Origin: an uncultured Christensenella sp. | GTDB taxonomy: Bacteria > Bacillota > Clostridia > Christensenellales > CAG-917 | DNA: 64,000 bases | Direction: 5' to 3' | Assembly (NCBI GenBank): GCA_910577815.1 | Contig: CAJTNO010000001.1 | Coordinates: forward strand, 284,557 to 348,556 | Part shown: in pieces, positions 6,313 through 62,257 of the stretch | Position numbering within the stretch: position 1 is the stretch's first letter | How the letters are laid out: every line of letters begins with the position of its first letter | Notes under the pieces: generated by a model | Told to the model about the DNA's origin: nothing | The model's input: the letters and a program-made list of their open reading frames with translations, nothing else | Database searches by the model: none | Position numbers and translations under genes: made by a program

Positions 6313-6319
6313 CGAGTAA

Positions 6320-6498
6320 ATGAATACCGCGCAGGCTGCACGGCGAAAGTATGTGCATTAAACGGGGAATACGGTGAAAATCCGTAGCTGTTCCGCAACG
6401 GTAACCTAAGGGAAGCCCGAATGCCAGACCTGCGAGAGGGGTTTCGTTTGGTTCGAGTTAAGCCGAGCGCGTCGGACACGTTTGGCGTGTCCTTTTTT
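6320..6498 (+). promoter_or_regulatory. Cobalamin (B12) riboswitch with intrinsic terminator
   Basis: Conserved core GGGGAAUACGGUGAAAAUCCGUAGCUGUUCCGCAACGGUAA and B12 box GGGAAGCCCGAAUGCCAGACCUGC. Expression platform hairpin GGACACG-tttgg-CGTGTCC plus T6 (6474-6498) lies just before the first gene. Confidence 0.85.
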
Positions 6499-13676: not shown

Positions 13677-13716
13677 TTACATTACATAACGCTCTTTGGG
13701 CGCAGGATTTGAAGTT

Positions 13717-15216
13717 ATGAGCGAACAGCAAATGAATACACCCGAGCTCCGTCCCGAGGCGGACGCCAACGAGGTGCGCAAGGTCAGAATAGAAAAGCTA
13801 AGGGAGCTTAGCGAAAACGGAAAAAATCCTTTTGAGATTACGTCCTTTGACAGGACTGCTACCGCCGCGGAGGTCAACGGCGATTACGACCGTCTCGAGG
13901 GTCAGTCCGTCCGCGTTGCGGGCAGACTCGTATCCAAGAGAATTATGGGCAAGGCGAGCTTTGGTCATATCCTCGACAGCGACGGCAAATTGCAGGGCTA
14001 TTTCAGCCGCGACGATATGGGCACAGAGGAATATCAGGCGTTTAAGAAATGGGACGTCGGCGATATTATCGGCATAGAGGGCGAGGTGTTTAAGACCAAG
14101 ACCGGCGAGATTTCCGTACACGTAAAGAGGGCGGAGCTACTTGCCAAATCACTGCTTCCGCTCCCCGAAAAATACCACGGTCTTAAGGATACGGAGCTGA
14201 GATACCGTCAGCGCTACGTCGACCTTATTGCAAATCCCGAGGTCAAGGACGTGTTTTTAAAGCGCAGCAGGATAATTTCCACCATTCGCGAGGTTCTTGA
14301 CAAAAAGGGCTTTGTAGAGGTTGAAACTCCTATACTCAATACCCTTGCCGGCGGCGCAAACGCGCGTCCGTTTATTACCCACCACAATACGCTGGATATC
14401 GATATGTATATGCGTATCGCTACCGAGCTGCACCTAAAGCGCTGTATAGTCGGCGGCTTCGATAAGGTTTACGAGATAGGCAGACAGTTCCGCAACGAGG
14501 GAATGGACCCTAAGCATAATCCCGAATTTACCACTATCGAGCTTTATCAGGCGTACTCCGATTACAAGGATATGATGGATATTACCGAGGAGCTGTACAG
14601 CACCGCCTGTATGCGCGTGCGCGGCACTCTGGATATAGAGTATCAGGGACAGCCGCTTTGCTTTAAAACTCCGTGGGCGAGGCTTTCTATGGTGGAGGCT
14701 GTAAAAAAATATACGGGACTGGATTTCGATACGCAGTCGCTTGACGAGCTTATCGCACAGGCTAACGCCAAGGGTCTCGAGCTTGCAAAGAATACGTCCT
14801 GGGGCACTGCGCTCTACGAGGTGTTTGACCGATTTGTAGAGGAAAAGTTGGTCGGACCTATCTTTATATACGATTATCCCGTTGAAGTGAGTCCGCTTGC
14901 AAAACGCAAGCCCTCCGACCCGCGCCTTACCGAAAGATTTGAGTTTTTCGTTTGCGCAAGCGAGGGCGGAAATGCGTTCAGCGAGCTTAACGACCCAATC
15001 GACCAGCGTTCGCGCTTCGAGCAGCAGATGCTTGCCAAGGCAAACGGCGACGAGGAGGCTCAGCCCTATGACGAGGATTTCTGCAACGCTCTCGAGTACG
15101 GAATGCCTCCGACAGGCGGCGTGGGCATAGGAATAGACAGAATGGTTATGGTGCTTACGGATTCGGCTTCTATACGTGATGTGTTACTTTTTCCCACAAT
15201 GCGCCCAATAAAATAA
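13717..15216 (+). CDS. lysS: Lysine--tRNA ligase (class II)
   Basis: OB-fold N-terminus and class II motifs (FVEVETPIL, YEIGRQFRNEG, GGVGIGIDRMVMVLT). ATG 13717 was chosen over the upstream TTG. Confidence 0.92.
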   Translation: MSEQQMNTPELRPEADANEVRKVRIEKLRELSENGKNPFEITSFDRTATAAEVNGDYDRLEGQSVRVAGRLVSKRIMGKASFGHILDSDGKLQGYFSRDDMGTEEYQAFKKWDVGDIIGIEGEVFKTKTGEISVHVKRAELLAKSLLPLPEKYHGLKDTELRYRQRYVDLIANPEVKDVFLKRSRIISTIREVLDKKGFVEVETPILNTLAGGANARPFITHHNTLDIDMYMRIATELHLKRCIVGGFDKVYEIGRQFRNEGMDPKHNPEFTTIELYQAYSDYKDMMDITEELYSTACMRVRGTLDIEYQGQPLCFKTPWARLSMVEAVKKYTGLDFDTQSLDELIAQANAKGLELAKNTSWGTALYEVFDRFVEEKLVGPIFIYDYPVEVSPLAKRKPSDPRLTERFEFFVCASEGGNAFSELNDPIDQRSRFEQQMLAKANGDEEAQPYDEDFCNALEYGMPPTGGVGIGIDRMVMVLTDSASIRDVLLFPTMRPIK

Positions 15217-15467
15217 TTGCGCCGACTGTCACACCTTGTGTGCCTGTCACAAATAATTTTGTGTGCCTATCACGCGTTATCTGAGTGAAGGCACACTGTG
15301 GTACGCACACTTGCGAGAATGCGAAATTTATAGTCATTTAAAGTAAACTCGCAAGATGTGCTGTGAGCGCAATCGTTTAAGGTGCAAAAGAGGCAAGTGA
15401 ATTGCCACTTTTGCGGAATGAAATTATTTGTAGGTGTACATCGCTCGTTACGAAGTTTAGAACACGA

Positions 15468-15760
15468 CGCGCAGGGCGCGGAGCTATTGAGCGCCGAAGT
15501 GCGATGATAGTACAAGTGAGCGCGGACTTCGTCCGTTTAAACACCAAGCAAAAGGTTATGCGGAGTGTAGCAGGAGTTTATAACGTCGGAGAAAGTGAAC
15601 AGCAAATAATCTTTTGCGCGGTAGTACAGATAAAATCGAACTATCATAATAACAATGATTACATCGTAAGCGTTGTTATGTGATATGTGCCGATTTTAGC
15701 TGTTGAGTGGTGGGAGCGGCGAGACCGGAAAGAGGGGGCTATTCTATTTATGTACACGAC
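15468..15760 (+). repeat. Modular intergenic element, copy A (candidate structured RNA or BOX-like repeat)
   Basis: 5' block 15471-15521 and 3' block 15705-15757 are near-identical to 61070-61121 and 61242-61304. The interior is unrelated in sequence but contains hairpins at equivalent positions. Confidence 0.6.
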
Positions 15761-16077: not shown

Positions 16078-16114
16078 TACAGTAACCTCAAAAAATGATT
16101 GTATCTACATTCTA

Positions 16115-16149
16115 ATACCCATTTTGGGTATTGTCAACCCAAAATGGGT
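16115..16149. promoter_or_regulatory. Two adjacent palindromic operator-like sites in a divergent promoter region
   Basis: ATACCCATTTTGGGTAT (16115-16131) and ACCCAAAATGGGT (16137-16149). TATAAT at 16159-16164 lies only 6 nt before ATG 16171. Confidence 0.55.
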
Positions 16150-16170
16150 ATTTGCGCGTATAATTTTACT

Positions 16171-16389
16171 ATGACTGATTTTAATTTTGGAAAAAACCTT
16201 AAAGAAATAAGAAAAGCAAACCATTTAACTCAAGCACAAGTGGCGGAGTTGCTTCATTGTAGCATAAATAAATATGCGAGCTGGGAACAAGGTCGTACTG
16301 AACCTGATATAGAAAGCTTGTGGGAATTATGCAAAATTTTTAATGTGAACTATAACGATTTGCTTATTCCTATAAATTCCCAATATTAA
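16171..16389 (+). CDS. XRE-family helix-turn-helix regulator (72 aa)
   Basis: LKEIRKANHLTQAQVAELLHCSINKYASWEQGRTEPD is the Cro/C1-type HTH pattern. Start set at the internal ATG just after the -10 box. Confidence 0.75.
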   Translation: MTDFNFGKNLKEIRKANHLTQAQVAELLHCSINKYASWEQGRTEPDIESLWELCKIFNVNYNDLLIPINSQY

Positions 16390-16445
16390 AATTTATTTAG
16401 TTTTCATAACGCCTTCATATAACACTCTTGTGGTAAATAATTTTT

Positions 16446-16661
16446 ATGAGAAAAATACTTTTTGCAGAAAGATTAAAAGAATTACGTAAAGAAGAAAATT
16501 TAACGCAGTTGGAACTTGCAAAATCCACAGGGTTAAGTCAAAGCGCAATAACTGCTTGGGAAGTTGGCACAAACTCTCCGACAGCAACGGCAATCGTACT
16601 TCTTGCGGAATATTTTGACGTTACAACAGATTACATACTTGGCGTAAGTAATATCAGATGA
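16446..16661 (+). CDS. XRE-family helix-turn-helix regulator (71 aa)
   Basis: LKELRKEENLTQLELAKSTGLSQSAITAWEVGTNSP HTH pattern. Confidence 0.75.
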   Translation: MRKILFAERLKELRKEENLTQLELAKSTGLSQSAITAWEVGTNSPTATAIVLLAEYFDVTTDYILGVSNIR

Positions 16662-16797
16662 TTTTAATTTGCATTATTAAGTTATTAAATGTTTTAAACC
16701 ATATAAAAAATAAAGCCGATTCAATTTACTTATTTGTATATTTGATGGTATTATAAAACATATCACTTTTAGATATAATTTTTTTAAAGGTGAAAAT

Positions 16798-17025
16798 ATG
16801 GATTTAAAAATAGAAGTAGGTAAAAGATTGGCGTACTGTAGAAAGCAAGCGGGTTATACGCAGAAACAGGCAGGCGAAGCGGTGAATATGACGCAGCCTA
16901 ATTATGCAAGATATGAGAGAGGAGTTTATGAATTAAACTACTATCAAATAAAAACCCTTTGCGCTTTATTTGATGTATCCTCTGATTATTTATTTGGTCT
17001 TTCAAAAGACATCGGCAGAAACTAA
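16798..17025 (+). CDS. XRE-family helix-turn-helix regulator (75 aa)
   Basis: LAYCRKQAGYTQKQAGEAVNMTQPNYARYERGVYE HTH pattern. The stop is 3 nt before the ispE start. Confidence 0.75.
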   Translation: MDLKIEVGKRLAYCRKQAGYTQKQAGEAVNMTQPNYARYERGVYELNYYQIKTLCALFDVSSDYLFGLSKDIGRN

Positions 17026-21213: not shown

Positions 21214-22329
21214 ATGAAAAATCATACTATGAGCGTACTGTTTGCATCCGACGCCGAGAGCCATCTCAACGACCTGACTATTCACCGTACCACCGCGTCG
21301 CTCCCATTCGGCGGTCGTTACCGTCTTATCGACTTTGCGCTGTCCAATCTGGTCAGCTCCAATATCACTACTATAGGTATCATAACGCGCAATAACTATA
21401 ACTCGCTTATGGACCATATCCGTATGGGGCGCGACTGGGACCTCAACAGAAAAAACAGCGGTATAACCGTTTTCCCGCCCTTCGTTTTCAACAGCGCGCA
21501 CGAGGTCTATAAGGGTAAAATTGAAGCTCTTTACACGCTGCGCGGCTTTATGATGAGCAATAACGAGGAGTACGTTGTCATTGCAAATACCAATATCGCC
21601 TGCAATATCGATTTCGAGGAGGTGGAAAAATTCCACATCGAAAAGGGCGCGGATATTACCGTCCTCACCCATTACACCGACGATACCAATCCGCGTAAGA
21701 TTATTATTTCCTCGGACAAAAACAACCGTATAACCGATATGCGCTATCCCGTTGCAAGCGATACCGGCAAGCAGAGATGTAACCTCAATATCTACTATAT
21801 CAAAAAGGATTTGCTTATTTCGCTTGTGGATAACGCTTATGCTCACGGCGCGTACGACTTTGAAAAGGATATCCTGCAAAAGAAGCTGGACGAGCTCTAT
21901 ATTATGAACTACGAGGTGAAGGATTACGTAGCCGTTATCGACCGTATTCCCACCTATTTCAAGCGCAGTATGGAGCTGCTCGACCCCGCCGTGCGCGAGG
22001 AGCTGTTCTATAAGCATTCTACCATTCTCACAAAGGTTAAGGACAGCGTTCCCGTCAAGTACAAGGAGGGCGCAGACGTCAAAAACTCAATTATCGCCGA
22101 CGGCTGCGTTATTGACGGCACCGTGGAAAACTCCATTCTGTTCCGTAGCGTCAAGGTCGGCAAGGGCGCAGTTATCAGAAATTCAATCATAATGGAGGAT
22201 TCCATCATTATGGACGGCGCGTCGCTTGATTACACAATTACCGATAAGGACGTTATAATTCAGTCCGGACGTACTCTCAGCGGCTATGAGAGCTATCCTA
22301 TGGTGGTGGTAAAGGGCAAAGTCATATAA
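21214..22329 (+). CDS. glgD: Glucose-1-phosphate adenylyltransferase regulatory subunit GlgD
   Basis: Paralogue of GlgC lacking the GGxGxR motif (RTTASLPFGGRYRLIDFALSN). Position right after glgC is typical for Firmicutes. Confidence 0.88.
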   Translation: MKNHTMSVLFASDAESHLNDLTIHRTTASLPFGGRYRLIDFALSNLVSSNITTIGIITRNNYNSLMDHIRMGRDWDLNRKNSGITVFPPFVFNSAHEVYKGKIEALYTLRGFMMSNNEEYVVIANTNIACNIDFEEVEKFHIEKGADITVLTHYTDDTNPRKIIISSDKNNRITDMRYPVASDTGKQRCNLNIYYIKKDLLISLVDNAYAHGAYDFEKDILQKKLDELYIMNYEVKDYVAVIDRIPTYFKRSMELLDPAVREELFYKHSTILTKVKDSVPVKYKEGADVKNSIIADGCVIDGTVENSILFRSVKVGKGAVIRNSIIMEDSIIMDGASLDYTITDKDVIIQSGRTLSGYESYPMVVVKGKVI

Positions 22330-22334
22330 AATCA

Positions 22335-22690
22335 GCGCAAATCACAGCGCAACACCCGCAAAGCGGTTATTGCGCGAGTGAAAGCTTGATTTTATATCGG
22401 CTACCGCGTAAAAGTTTGTTGTACTGTACACTTTAACCGACGTTGTAAACACTTGCAACGCTCCGTACAAACTTTTACTTGGTTGATGCAAGCGGAATAA
22501 ATATATAAAACGGCGCAAATCACGGCGCAACACCCGCAAAGCGGTTATTGCGCGAGTGAAAGCTTGATTTTATATCGGCTACCGCGTAAAAGTTTGTTGT
22601 ACTGTACACTTTAACCGACGTTGTAAACACCTGCAACGCTCCGTACAAACATTGTATAAACGGAAAAATTATATAAGGAGAAATCAATAT
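22335..22690 (+). repeat. Tandem duplication, period 178 nt, two copies
   Basis: 138-nt cores at 22335-22472 and 22513-22650 differ at only two positions (A22346/G22524, T22453/C22631). The 40-nt tails are only loosely similar. Confidence 0.95.
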
Positions 22691-45656: not shown

Positions 45657-45731
45657 TGGTACTCCCGGCGGGAATCGAACCCACAACGGCCCCTTAGGAG
45701 GGGGCTGTTATATCCATTTAACTACGGAAGC
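45657..45731 (-). tRNA. tRNA-Arg (anticodon CCU)
   Basis: The reverse strand folds as a cloverleaf: acceptor GCTTCCG/CGGGAGT, D-arm GTTA-AATGGATA-TAAC, anticodon arm GCCCC-CTCCTAA-GGGGC, T-arm GTGGG-TTCGATT-CCCGC, encoded ACCA end. TTGTCA-N17-TATAAT lies upstream. Confidence 0.85.
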
Positions 45732-59758: not shown

Positions 59759-61042
59759 ATGTTAGATTTAATAAGAATAAGAAACAATCCGCAGGCAGTG
59801 GCAGACGCTCTGGCAAAAAAGGGCTTTAAGGCTGATTTCGACGAGGTTATCGCGTGGGACGATATGCGCAAGGCGCTTATAACCGACGTGGAGCAGTTGA
59901 AGGCGCAGAAAAATAAGGTGTCGGCGCAGATACCCGTGCTTAAAAAGGCAGGTCAGTCCGTCGAGCCTATTTTTGAGGAGATGAGAAAGCTCGGCGACGA
60001 GATTGCCGCGAGCGACGCTAAGATTGCGGAGCTGATTGCAAATATAAACGACACTCTTGCCTGTATGCCCAATATCCCCGACGACGACCTGCTCGCGGGA
60101 GAAAAGGAAAACAATCAGGTAGTTAAGACGGGCGGCAAAAAGCCGGAGTTTGACTTTACTCCCAAAAACCACGTTGACCTTTGCACCGACCTCGGGCTTA
60201 TCGACTACGAGCGCGGAGTAAAGCTGAGCGGCAACGGCTTCTGGATTTACAGAGGCGTCGGCGCAAGACTGGAATGGGCGTTGCTCAATTATTTTGTGGA
60301 CGAGCATTTACAGGACGGCTACGAATTTATTCTGCCGCCCTATCAGCTTGGATATAACTGCGGCTTCGGAGCGGGGCAGTTTCCAAAATTCAGCGACGAG
60401 GTTTACTGGCTGGATTGCGACGAGGATAAAAAACGCAACCGCTTTATGCTTCCCACCGCCGAAACCGCGCTTGTAAATATGTATGCGGGCGAAATTATAG
60501 ACGAAAGCAGGCTTCCTATGAAATTCTTTGCGTACTCGCCCTGCTTCAGAAAGGAGGCGGGCTCTGCACGCACGGAGGAGCGCGGAATGATTAGAGGACA
60601 TCAGTTCAACAAGATTGAGATGGTGCAGTACGCGCATCCCGACCGCAGTATGGAGGCTTTTGAGGAGCTTGTAGAAAAGGCGGCGAGACTTGTCGAAAAG
60701 CTTGGACTTCACTATCGCGTGAGCAAGCTTGCGGCGGGCGACTGCTCGGCTTCTATGGCGAGAACCTACGACGTGGAGCTGTGGATTCCGTCTATGGGAA
60801 TTTATAAGGAGTGTTCGTCCGTAAGCAACGCAAACGATTATCAGGCGCGCAGAAATAATACTCGTTTCCGTGATTCCAAGACGGGCAAGCCGCAGTTTGT
60901 GCATACTCTTAACGGCAGCGGTCTTGCAACGTCGCGACTTATCCCCGCAATCGTCGAGCAGTATCAGAATGCGGACGGAAGCGTTACCGTGCCCGAAGTT
61001 TTACGTAAGTATTTAAATATAGATTGTATATCTAATAAATAA
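59759..61042 (+). CDS. serS: Serine--tRNA ligase
   Basis: N-terminal coiled-coil arm and class II motifs (FRKEAGSAR, RGHQFNKIEM, TLNGSGLATSR). Confidence 0.95.
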   Translation: MLDLIRIRNNPQAVADALAKKGFKADFDEVIAWDDMRKALITDVEQLKAQKNKVSAQIPVLKKAGQSVEPIFEEMRKLGDEIAASDAKIAELIANINDTLACMPNIPDDDLLAGEKENNQVVKTGGKKPEFDFTPKNHVDLCTDLGLIDYERGVKLSGNGFWIYRGVGARLEWALLNYFVDEHLQDGYEFILPPYQLGYNCGFGAGQFPKFSDEVYWLDCDEDKKRNRFMLPTAETALVNMYAGEIIDESRLPMKFFAYSPCFRKEAGSARTEERGMIRGHQFNKIEMVQYAHPDRSMEAFEELVEKAARLVEKLGLHYRVSKLAAGDCSASMARTYDVELWIPSMGIYKECSSVSNANDYQARRNNTRFRDSKTGKPQFVHTLNGSGLATSRLIPAIVEQYQNADGSVTVPEVLRKYLNIDCISNK

Positions 61043-61063
61043 AAGCTTAGTTGAAAGTAACAA

Positions 61064-61306
61064 GCGCGTGCAGGGCGCGCGCCAAATTGAGTGCCGAAGT
61101 GCGATGATAGTACAAGTGAGCGGACAAATGCAGTTTGACTGTCCGCGAACGAGTGGCATAATAAAGCGACGGTGGTTGTTCACGAGTGCCGTCTGTCTCC
61201 CCCGCGAGCGATGTGCAGTTAAATAGTGAAATCACTATTTCGAGTGGTGGGAGAAATACCGGCGAGACCGGAAAGAGGGGGCTATTCTATTTATAGTTCA
61301 CGACGG
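61064..61306 (+). repeat. Modular intergenic element, copy B (candidate structured RNA or BOX-like repeat)
   Basis: Shares the 5' block (61070-61121) and 3' block (61242-61304) with copy A at 15468-15760. It fills almost the whole serS-nrdG spacer. Confidence 0.6.
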
Positions 61307-61321
61307 GGTATTATTTAACAT

Positions 61322-62017
61322 ATGAAAATCAACGGTTACGAAAAGTTTTCAATGGTCGATTTCGAGGGCAAAATCGCTTGCACCGTTTTTACGGGCGGCT
61401 GCAACCTGCGTTGTCCCTTTTGTCATAACGGCTCGCTTGTGATAGGCGACGTAAAGGCAAATCAGATTGACGACGGCGAGGTTATGGAATATCTCGAGAA
61501 ACGCCGCGGGCTTGTGGACGCGGTCAGCGTTACGGGCGGCGAAGCTACGCTTCAGCCCGACCTTGCGGATTTTCTCAGGCGCGTGCGCGCGCTTGGATAT
61601 ATCACCAAGCTTGACACAAACGGATTACGTCCCGACGTGCTTAAAAATCTGCTTGACGAGGGACTTGTCGATTATGTGGCTATGGATATTAAAAACAGCC
61701 CCGAAAAGTACGCGTTTACTACGGGGCTTAAGTGCGTTGACCTCGATAAAATCAACGAGAGTATGCGCATTATAAAGGAAAGCGGAGTTAATCACGAATA
61801 CCGCACGACGATAATCAAGGAGTTTCACACCGCAGAGGATATGGAAAGAATTGCGCAGTGGGTTAGCGGCGCAAACGCATATTATATGCAGAAATACAGC
61901 GACAGCGAGGGCTGTATATCCCACGGCTATCACGAAATCGAAAAAGCGCAGGCGGAGGAATTTGCCAAGCTATTTGAAAATAAAGTAGTAAAGGTTGGCT
62001 TACGCGGATACAACTAA
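61322..62017 (+). CDS. nrdG: Anaerobic ribonucleotide reductase activating protein (radical SAM)
   Basis: FSMVDFEGKIACTVFTGGCNLRCPFCHN and GGEATLQPDL, typical of the NrdG2 class. It lies about 10 kb from nrdD. Confidence 0.8.
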   Translation: MKINGYEKFSMVDFEGKIACTVFTGGCNLRCPFCHNGSLVIGDVKANQIDDGEVMEYLEKRRGLVDAVSVTGGEATLQPDLADFLRRVRALGYITKLDTNGLRPDVLKNLLDEGLVDYVAMDIKNSPEKYAFTTGLKCVDLDKINESMRIIKESGVNHEYRTTIIKEFHTAEDMERIAQWVSGANAYYMQKYSDSEGCISHGYHEIEKAQAEEFAKLFENKVVKVGLRGYN

Positions 62018-62053: not shown

Positions 62054-62257
62054 CTAAACGTCGTTTAAAGCATCGCCGAGAAGTTCGTTTATAGAAACAT
62101 TATATAAATTTGCAAGCATAGCTAACTTATCGGCGCGTATAGTTAGAGGTTTTTGTTCATACCGCCTATATGTGTTGTCGCTGATATGTAATATCTCCGC
62201 TACCTGCTTACAGCTATATCCGCGTCTTTTTCTTAATTTTTTTAATTTCGACCACAT
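62054..62257 (-). CDS. XRE-family helix-turn-helix regulator (67 aa)
   Basis: LRKRRGYSCKQVAEILHISDNTYRRYEQ HTH pattern, in an AT-rich stretch. Confidence 0.7.
   Translation of the reverse strand: MWSKLKKLRKRRGYSCKQVAEILHISDNTYRRYEQKPLTIRADKLAMLANLYNVSINELLGDALNDV

Follow-up and report, generated by a model that had tools for sequence, protein, structure and literature searches.

Pneumococcal BOX repeats have the order boxA-boxB(n)-boxC, in which boxA and boxC are complementary and the middle consists of tandem boxB units. ERIC sequences are each a single long imperfect palindrome, and the bcr1 repeat of the Bacillus cereus group has terminal inverted repeats and a TTTAT duplication. Here, we analyzed a 64,000-nucleotide stretch of the genome of an uncultured Christensenella species (GenBank assembly GCA_910577815.1, contig CAJTNO010000001.1, positions 284,557 to 348,556 of the forward strand; hereafter the window), in which a preliminary description had singled out an intergenic element at 15468-15760 (copy A) that shares both of its ends with a second locus 45 kb away (copy B). 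We find that copy A is very probably a chimeric, structurally disabled member of an uncatalogued family of interspersed repeats, which we call R1, that has a conserved RNA-type fold and is present or absent at the level of strains.

Like the BOX repeats, R1 is short, non-coding, intergenic, multi-copy, variable among strains, modular in length, predicted to fold as RNA and devoid of genes. The proposed likeness to BOX therefore stands for interspersed, strain-variable behavior, but not for architecture, since pairing ends and a tandem middle are both lacking. Judged against the description of BOX, the ends of R1 pair instead with interior strands of two helices (P3 and P5, below), canonical copies contain no tandem unit, the conserved multi-helix core is unique, length varies through domains at helix tips, and the hosts are Clostridia rather than streptococci. 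ERIC, also called IRU, and the bcr repeats of the Bacillus cereus group share with R1 an occurrence across species, an intergenic position in either orientation, variants with internal insertions and compensatory changes suggestive of selection on the RNA. Unlike ERIC and bcr1, however, R1 lacks symmetry; it contains a long-range helix and tandem G.A motifs, and its flanking boxes are direct rather than inverted.

Two further groups of elements invite comparison. The palindrome-associated transposable elements (PATEs) of the IS200/IS605 family and the HEARO or omega RNAs resemble R1 in lacking terminal inverted repeats and target duplications, in having strand-specific structure and in existing as many copies without an open reading frame (ORF); the HEARO/omega RNAs of IscB and TnpB are, in addition, conserved structured RNAs on mobile elements. 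Elements of the IS200/IS605 family insert 3′ of a fixed tetra- or pentanucleotide. By contrast with PATEs, whose ends carry similar subterminal hairpins that one TnpA recognizes, the two end hairpins of R1, H1 (GCGC-AGG-GCGC) and H6 (CCGG-CGAGA-CCGG), resemble each other neither in sequence nor in how far they lie from the ends. The HEARO model of Rfam did not match copy A or copy B even at E = 10, no variable guide segment was evident in the R1 alignments, and no TnpA, TnpB or IscB gene was found within ~4 kb of 12 R1 copies. The large RNAs raiA, ROOL, GOLLD and OLE, also found in Bacillota, share with R1 a multi-helix fold, invariant junctions and optional peripheral domains. R1 differs from them in that it does not match their Rfam models, is shorter and multi-copy, and is polymorphic in presence within species.

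Copies A and B share their ends but not their interiors

The matches reported between the two loci are real. The 5′ blocks share a 30-mer, GCCGAAGTGCGATGATAGTACAAGTGAGCG, that occurs exactly at 15493-15522 and 61093-61122 on the same strand and at no other place in the window, and the 3′ blocks share a 31-mer, GAGACCGGAAAGAGGGGGCTATTCTATTTAT, that occurs exactly at 15721-15751 and 61264-61294, again on the same strand and at only these two sites. No occurrence of either is expected in the window by chance. Pairwise alignment of the two copies recovered the single C/T difference and the indel of CGGC versus AAATACCGGC noted previously, and showed GCAGGGCGCG upstream. The interiors (183 nt in copy A, 15523-15705; 119 nt in copy B, 61123-61241) have no alignable similarity, and the four hairpins quoted from them are all present in the sequence.

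Homologues were identified by scanning metagenome contigs and genomes with an 18-mer pattern from the 3′ block and by a profile search that added a divergent long copy (L015:8840-9410). A 20-mer from the 5′ block gave no match in a first genome scan. Approximately 14 homologues were recovered from five lineages of gut Christensenella-like metagenome-assembled genomes, with up to five or more in a genome. The genome loci lie in "uncultured Christensenella sp." MGBC124771 (five), Christensenella sp. UBA7588 (two) and a Hadza Clostridia metagenome-assembled genome (one); a partial copy is in a bin labelled Butyrivibrio crossotus and further copies are on several metagenome contigs. R1 is ~240-300 bp long, or up to ~570 bp where optional domains are present. 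Within a genome the copies are almost the same in sequence, whereas stems differ between species. R1 lies beside unrelated housekeeping genes without a fixed orientation toward them, and several copies are antisense to both neighbors.

Every homologue carries the interior of copy B (GAACGAGTGGCATAATAAG, GAGTGCCG..GTCNCCCCCRCGAGCGATG, TGTAGAGAAAT and CGAGTGGTGGGAG), indicating that R1 is conserved along its whole length. The R1 profile, by contrast, aligns with copy A in two places only, with its positions 2-59 at 15466-15522 and its positions 180-245 at 15703-15760. When the copy A interior was compared with the window by BLAST, two related segments emerged on the minus strand at about 22.4 kb. 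Together, the three sequences define a second repeat that we call R3, and the profile made from them matched 15519-15698 (nhmmer, E = 1.4e-52), 22327-22508 and 22507-22678, with E values in the range of 1e-52 to 1e-59. Copy A is thus laid out as R1 positions 1-59, one R3 unit and R1 positions 180-245, with positions 60-179 replaced. Moreover, contig L020 has the right flank of copy A with few single-nucleotide differences, yet a complete B-type interior. The profile matches and the intact interior in L020 argue that copy A is a derived allele in which the center of R1 was replaced by an R3 unit. The picture of conserved ends around a variable structured middle consequently does not describe this family, and the hairpins that seemed to occupy the same relative places in the two copies are not homologous, because those in copy A belong to a different repeat.

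The replacement removed the 3′ strand of P3, the whole of P4, the 5′ strand of P5 and H5, so copy A cannot adopt the fold of the family described below. Membership in that fold, taken as the presence of both strands of P3 and P5 together with P4 and H5, does not extend to copy A, which is probably a decayed, dead copy of R1. The coordinates of its parts and of those of copy B are collected in Table 1.

In a public assembly, a 59-amino-acid gene is called across copy A (window 15504-15683; L011:4788-4967). No other R1 copy conserves this ORF, and the call is almost certainly spurious.

Table 1 Positions of R1, R3 and associated features in the window
Feature	Position	Strand	Remarks
R4 terminator-like hairpin, GCAAAAG-N4-AAGTNAATT-N4-CTTTTGC	15384-15414	+	Upstream of copy A
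Copy A, leader M-box CGCTCGTTACGAAGTTTAGAAC	15442-15463	+	Related boxes ACACTCNTTNCGAAG around most R1 copies
Copy A, H1, GC-rich 5′ hairpin CGCGC-AGG-GCGCG	15468-15480	+	Stem covaries; 3/5 pairs changed on both sides, 100% paired
Copy A, H2 hairpin region ATTGAGCGCCGAAGTGCGATGA	15486-15507	+	Contains the C/T difference, C-G to U-G
Copy A, conserved TAGTAC and orphan P3 5′ strand TACAAGTGAGCG	15508-15522	+	3′ partner GAACGAGTG absent from copy A
Copy A, one R3 unit (short hairpin, 70-nt hairpin, GCGGTAG, 78-nt hairpin)	15523-15703	+	R3 profile match
Copy A, orphan P5 3′ strand GAGTGGTGGGAG	15705-15716	+	C-rich partner absent from copy A
Copy A, H6, 3′ hairpin CGG-CGAGA-CCG	15717-15727	+	98% paired across homologues
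Copy A, invariant purine-rich tract GGAAAGAGGGGGCTAT	15727-15742	+	Outside all helices of the tested model; Shine-Dalgarno-like
Copy A, AT-rich tail ending in conserved CACGAC	15743-15760	+	
Two tandem R3 units	22327-22678	-	Between glgD and the bPH_2 gene; source family of the copy A interior
Copy B, complete canonical R1	61044-61318	+	275-bp insertion between serS stop and radical-SAM gene start
Copy B, H1	61064-61082		
Copy B, H2	61086-61107		
Copy B, P3	61111-61155		
Copy B, P4	61168-61193		
Copy B, P5	61197-61205 with 61241-61253		
Copy B, H5	61221-61240		
Copy B, H6	61259-61271		
Copy B, purine tract	61270-61285		
Copy B, CACGAC	61299-61304		

R1 has a conserved RNA-type fold

The fold of R1 runs in the order H1, H2, TAGTAC, P3, GGCAUAAUAAG, P4, the long-range helix P5, H5, H6, the purine tract GGAAAGAGGGGGCUAU and an AU-rich tail ending in ACGAC. 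H2 forms a hairpin in every homologue, in differing registers. P3 is a long hairpin with tandem G.A pairs, UAC-AA-GU-GA-(7-9-bp stem)-GA-AC-GA-GUG, and its shape is kept with unrelated stems in nine homologues and over five different stem sequences; in the UBA7588 lineage, its internal loops are replaced by Watson-Crick pairs. P5 pairs CCC(N)CRC with GUG(N)GGG across ~40-100 nt and is followed by tandem G.A and then by a covarying pair, for which six sequences have G-C and five have A-U. In copy 2 of L015, CAC/GUG in P5 has become UGC/GCA (read from the raw sequence, this row being gapped by MAFFT). P5 joins the C-run to GUGGUGGG, and the purine tract is left out of every helix of the tested model.

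We tested this fold on a MAFFT alignment of 14 sequences (A4) that was not fitted to structure, using helices derived by sequence comparison. Standard pairs made up 89.2% of cells compared to 32-44% when partners were slid by 1-3 columns, 15 of 31 pairs had changed on both sides compared to 3-6 in the slid controls, and the covariation score was 0.19 compared to 0.02-0.07. None of 500 shuffles reached the observed fold values, save that one of the five measures, the number of further standard pair types, was not above the shuffles (21 versus a mean of 20.5). The helices of the family thus show compensatory changes above slid and shuffled controls, in agreement with the structured element proposed in the preliminary description; by the generic standard for a structured RNA, that helices are kept by compensatory changes above controls, R1 belongs with such RNAs. 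Optional domains, too, are inserted at the same points in different lineages and display G-C to A-U swaps. One that follows GCCGTA is common to L015 copy 2 and L037/L043 (GCGAUUG/CAAUCGC versus GCAAUUG/CAAUUGC), and an extended 3′ domain is common to L015 copy 2, L044 and L025.

The C/T difference between copies A and B, which changes a C-G pair of H2 to U-G, had been read as a sign that the plus strand is the RNA. Consistent with this reading, the minimum free energy was lower for the plus strand than for the reverse complement in 10 of 10 sequences. G.U cells numbered 21 and A.C cells 11.

Among near-identical copies of the same genome, the 5′ strand of P4 (A4 columns 110-123; copy B 61165-61178) differs at about half of its positions while the 3′ strand is constant, and pairing is kept in shifted registers. 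A long-range pairing of GAGYGCC with GGGGGCU suggested by RNAalifold was rejected because its 5′ strand is taken up by H2 in most lineages.

R1 is present or absent among strains

To compare filled and empty sites, we used contigs encoding exactly the same SerS protein. The spacing from serS to the downstream radical-SAM gene is 279 nt in most strains and 4 nt in two independent assemblies (L002 and L008). The flanks of filled and empty sites are identical and differ by a clean 275 bp, AGCTTAGTTGAAAG...GGGGTATTATTTAA (61044-61318), so R1 at this locus is longer than first described. Any boundary ambiguity or target duplication amounts, at this single locus, to at most AA (2 bp). The insert has no terminal inverted repeats, its ends AGCTTAGTTGAAAG and GGGGTATTATTTAA not being reverse complements. 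Of the two hallmarks of a miniature inverted-repeat transposable element (MITE), terminal inverted repeats and a target-site duplication of fixed length, neither was found, the second as judged from one locus.

Copy B begins 1 nt past the stop of serS (59759-61042), and the radical-SAM gene starts at 61322. By comparison, copy A is ~250 nt past the stop of lysS (13696-15216, stop at 15216) and is separated from it by a terminator-like hairpin (R4). The statement that both copies lie directly 3′ of an aminoacyl-tRNA synthetase gene accordingly fits copy B and not copy A. Because copy B sits inside an operon, we infer that it must be co-transcribed with it. No clean empty site was found for copy A; a look-up of its neighbor of 94 amino acids returned the same arrangement only, and strains that lack R1 at the lysS locus have a different small-gene cassette between lysS and the GHMP-kinase gene. 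Synteny breaks were seen at R1 on three contigs, with L005 and L027 diverging right after GGCTAT and L020 right before H1.

Two arrangements stood out among the contigs. At L016:5640-5720, a fragment resembling an internally deleted 3′ end of long-form R1 (GGGGAAACTTGCATTAAAAGAGTTACGACTACACTCTATT) is directly downstream of a complete R1. L020 (positions 1-340) carries a leader resembling a T-box, with GTACGGTGGTACCGC ahead of a terminator. It is directed into an intact R1, and no gene lies beyond it on that side; the arrangement is either a rearrangement at R1 or an assembly chimera.

Flanking boxes, purine tract and candidate signals

Most R1 copies are bracketed on both sides by direct repeats of 15-20 nt (ACACTCNTTNCGAAG; M-boxes), at times with two or three in tandem upstream. 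In the sequences examined, M-boxes were found only next to R1. They may resemble boxA antitermination sites; a literature search for a Gram-positive boxA sequence with which to compare them found none. Site-specific integration into an M-box target was considered and rejected, because the empty serS site has no M-box.

The purine tract GGAAAGAGGGGGCUAU is predicted to pair with a generic 16S anti-Shine-Dalgarno sequence at -12.6 to -18.8 kcal/mol, and no start codon follows it consistently across homologues. In this respect R1 resembles STAB-SD of Bacillus (GAAAGGAGG, in an untranslated leader), which likewise has a strong Shine-Dalgarno-like purine tract, GGAAAGAGGGGG in R1, without a conserved start codon. 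STAB-SD is a short 5′ mRNA stabilizer motif whereas R1 is a 250-nt fold, and the analogy is one of function only. By that analogy, it is possible that the R1 tract GGAAAGAGGGGG acts as a ribosome-binding site in the manner of STAB-SD.

Several candidate signals did not withstand comparison across lineages. A sigma-70 promoter at GTGGCATAAT was discarded since three lineages have C instead of T at the last position of its -10 box. Complementarity of GUUACGAC to 16S rRNA 1494-1501 is treated as coincidence, only ACGAC being conserved. A small ORF with a MIVQVS start beside the radical-SAM gene, considered as a type I toxin or as the leader of a ribosomally synthesized and post-translationally modified peptide, is unconserved between lineages, and no conserved ORF was found in the R1 homologues. 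Weak terminator-like matches occur on the minus strand at H1 and H6.

R1 has no match among known families

Both copies and 12 homologous loci were scanned with Rfam 15. At the gathering score, nothing matched R1 at any of these loci, and in the window only a cobalamin riboswitch (6316-6447, plus strand) and a tRNA gene (45660-45731, minus strand) were detected; at E up to 10, copies A and B gave nothing relevant. The repeat is therefore real and without an Rfam family, as the preliminary description had supposed. Searches for R1 in phage and plasmid records (BLAST, distant mode) found nothing, four R1 probes and one R3 probe gave only chance matches in IMG/VR, and no described Christensenella repeat or matching class of large non-coding RNA was found in the literature. 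By these comparisons of sequence, R1 is previously uncatalogued.

Group I introns have a U before the 5′ splice site and a terminal G, and group II introns begin with GUGYG and end in AY. With its 2-nt boundary ambiguity taken into account, the R1 insert starts with AGCUU, AAGCU or AAAGC and ends in A or U, and the Rfam intron models did not match, so a group I or group II intron was rejected. A T-box leader was likewise rejected: RF00230 did not match at E up to 10, and R1 is downstream of synthetase genes.

Other repeats and neighboring features

Each R3 unit spans ~178 nt and contains two long hairpins; in the first of them, compensatory differences between copies are seen. The R3 array lies inside the glycogen operon and is antisense to it. 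Strains with identical GlgD have one, two, three or at least four copies (loci L090-L094, of which L093 contains a scaffold gap). A distant relative of R3 is next to R1 in MGBC124771 (L037:1805-1907), and R3 has no match in Rfam. A third dispersed repeat, R2 (GGCTCCCCTTAGTAAGGGGAGCT-hairpin-GGTGAGGGGATTGT), is present in MGBC124771 at L035, L037, L043 and L045, with at least four copies in L037. Copies of R2 are frequently adjacent to R1, and in L035 they lie on both sides of it as inverted repeats. The flanking inverted repeats in this genome, considered as terminal inverted repeats of R1, are instead copies of the independent repeat R2.

The R4 hairpin upstream of copy A also occurs at L037:1755-1785 and L045:1042-1072 in a second species. 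These loci are not orthologous to that of copy A, and changes in the stem are compensated. In every case an R1 in the same orientation lies downstream of it, ~210 nt away at the two loci of the other species. R4 is present, too, in strains without R1 (L012 and L013).

The spacer between lysS and copy A contains a pair of direct repeats, TTGTGTGCCT(G/A)TCAC, together with GGCACAC in inverted form (15236-15273 and 15293-15299); in strain L012, a canonical terminator is found there instead. A T-box leader was not detectable at any of the four synthetase genes of the window (alaS, lysS, leuS and serS). Cassettes of very small Xre-type helix-turn-helix (HTH) genes adjoin both R1 loci (16099-17025 and 62054-62257; loci L001-L013). 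These cassettes are present, absent or swapped among strains with identical flanking housekeeping proteins, and the alternative in L012 consists of an HTH gene and DUF6809.

Discussion

The clean indel at serS, the homogeneity of copies within genomes, the fragments and the lack of a promoter and terminator lead us to favor, with some reservation, the view that R1 is a selfish, non-autonomous mobile element rather than a gene for a stand-alone non-coding RNA. R1 enters and leaves loci as a discrete, gene-less segment of DNA, and we propose that it would usually be transcribed from the plus strand by read-through from neighboring genes. The resulting RNA may be the selected product, either aiding the spread or retention of the element or acting in cis on the host transcript. 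In the latter case, the Shine-Dalgarno-like tract would bind 30S subunits, as STAB-SD 5′ stabilizers do in Bacillus. Our confidence in these roles, an RNA that serves its own spread or a ribosome-binding stabilizer in cis, is low.

Several observations weigh against this account of a mobile, folded R1. The structure that we tested was derived from copy B, which makes the comparison with slid controls somewhat favorable. The homologues represent only about five lineages and were found through the 18-mer of the 3′ block, so the invariance of that block is partly an effect of the search. The ends of the element are defined by one filled and empty pair only, and no transposase, recombinase or reverse transcriptase was found near any R1 copy or among the 18 window proteins scanned. 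Copy B lacks a left M-box and its right box is degenerate, and direct M-box repeats match no transposition chemistry that we can name. A plain mobile DNA repeat would not require so elaborate a conserved fold. No conserved sigma-70 promoter or terminator was found in the R1 homologues. Finally, the breaks in L005, L020 and L027 could reflect either recombination among R1 copies or chimeric mis-joining at a repeat by the assembler, and we do not rely on them.

The foremost alternative, which we regard as possible but improbable, is that R1 is a family of stand-alone, trans-acting structured RNA genes, a new mid-sized class like raiA or ROOL that has been duplicated and exchanged between strains, with copy A a pseudogene. 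A fold conserved with covariation, conserved single-stranded junctions, optional peripheral domains at fixed points, an orientation independent of the neighbors, a terminator-like hairpin often just upstream and the lack of a matching Rfam family would all be in keeping with such genes. However, the homologues have neither a conserved sigma-70-type promoter nor a conserved terminator, and copy B is lodged in what is otherwise a 4-nt spacer within an operon, which leaves no room for signals of its own. Strains without a copy are otherwise identical, and near-identical copies and fragments within the same genome are what mobile repeats produce.

It is doubtful, though conceivable, that R1 is a new small mobile element whose RNA is part of its mobility, whether as a SINE-like retroelement (short interspersed nuclear element) using a reverse transcriptase in trans, as a new ribozyme or as an RNA cofactor of a recombinase. 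Hints in this direction are that an insertion without genes keeps an elaborate fold from species to species, that its terminal boxes are direct, that a polypurine tract lies close to the 3′ end and that the first box is missing from copy B, as in a 5′-truncated retro-copy; none is decisive.

We consider it unlikely that R1 is a repeat at the DNA level only, similar to a MITE or to repetitive extragenic palindromes and bacterial interspersed mosaic elements (REP/BIME), in which hairpins serve a transposase or act as terminators or insulators and the RNA fold is a by-product. Polymorphism of presence, the intergenic position in clusters with R2, R3 and R4, and the weak terminator-like matches on the minus strand at H1 and H6 would suit a repeat of this kind. 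Yet duplex DNA cannot accommodate P5 and the tandem G.A and covarying pair beside it, and the long-range helix and tandem G.A motifs are the reason for our judgment. Nor is a DNA role evident for P5, for conserved junctions that are not palindromic, or for optional domains with compensatory changes; terminal inverted repeats are lacking, any duplication is at most 2 bp, and the plus strand folds better.

The original proposal, that copies A and B are two working versions of a modular RNA whose ends clamp an interchangeable structured middle, is very hard to maintain. The ends are identical, both interiors are rich in hairpins and the R3 hairpins covary, but a foreign interior occurs only in copy A among ~15 copies, and R3 exists alone as a tandem array without R1 ends. 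Furthermore, the conserved ends pair with the interior through P3 and P5 and not with each other, and copy A leaves both of these strands unpaired.

That R1 is a cis-regulatory or 3′-untranslated element specific to aminoacyl-tRNA synthetase genes is the least credible reading, because, although sense copies follow lysS, serS and proS, another follows a T-box leader and ~4 of 14 loci are of this kind against ~0.3 expected by a rough estimate (a nominal enrichment), nine other loci abut unrelated housekeeping genes (ispDF, dnaE/pfkA, rlmB/sigH, lepB, rimP, fumarase and others), several copies run antisense to the genes on either side, serS works without R1 in the empty-site strains, the window is itself dense in synthetase genes (alaS, lysS, leuS and serS) and the Rfam T-box model does not match R1.

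Copy A illustrates that when two loci share identical ends but have unrelated middles, the cause can simply be that one repeat has become nested within another. As nearly identical repeats of 180-300 bp, R1 and R3 give rise to strain-level indels and spurious gene calls, and they probably break or mis-join metagenome assemblies. If its fold is functional, R1 would be an uncatalogued family of structured RNA in the Christensenellales, a gut lineage of health interest that has been little studied genetically. Being tied to a mobile, gene-less insertion without terminal inverted repeats or target duplication, it would offer a tractable lead to a new mobility mechanism or to a new cis-acting RNA module.

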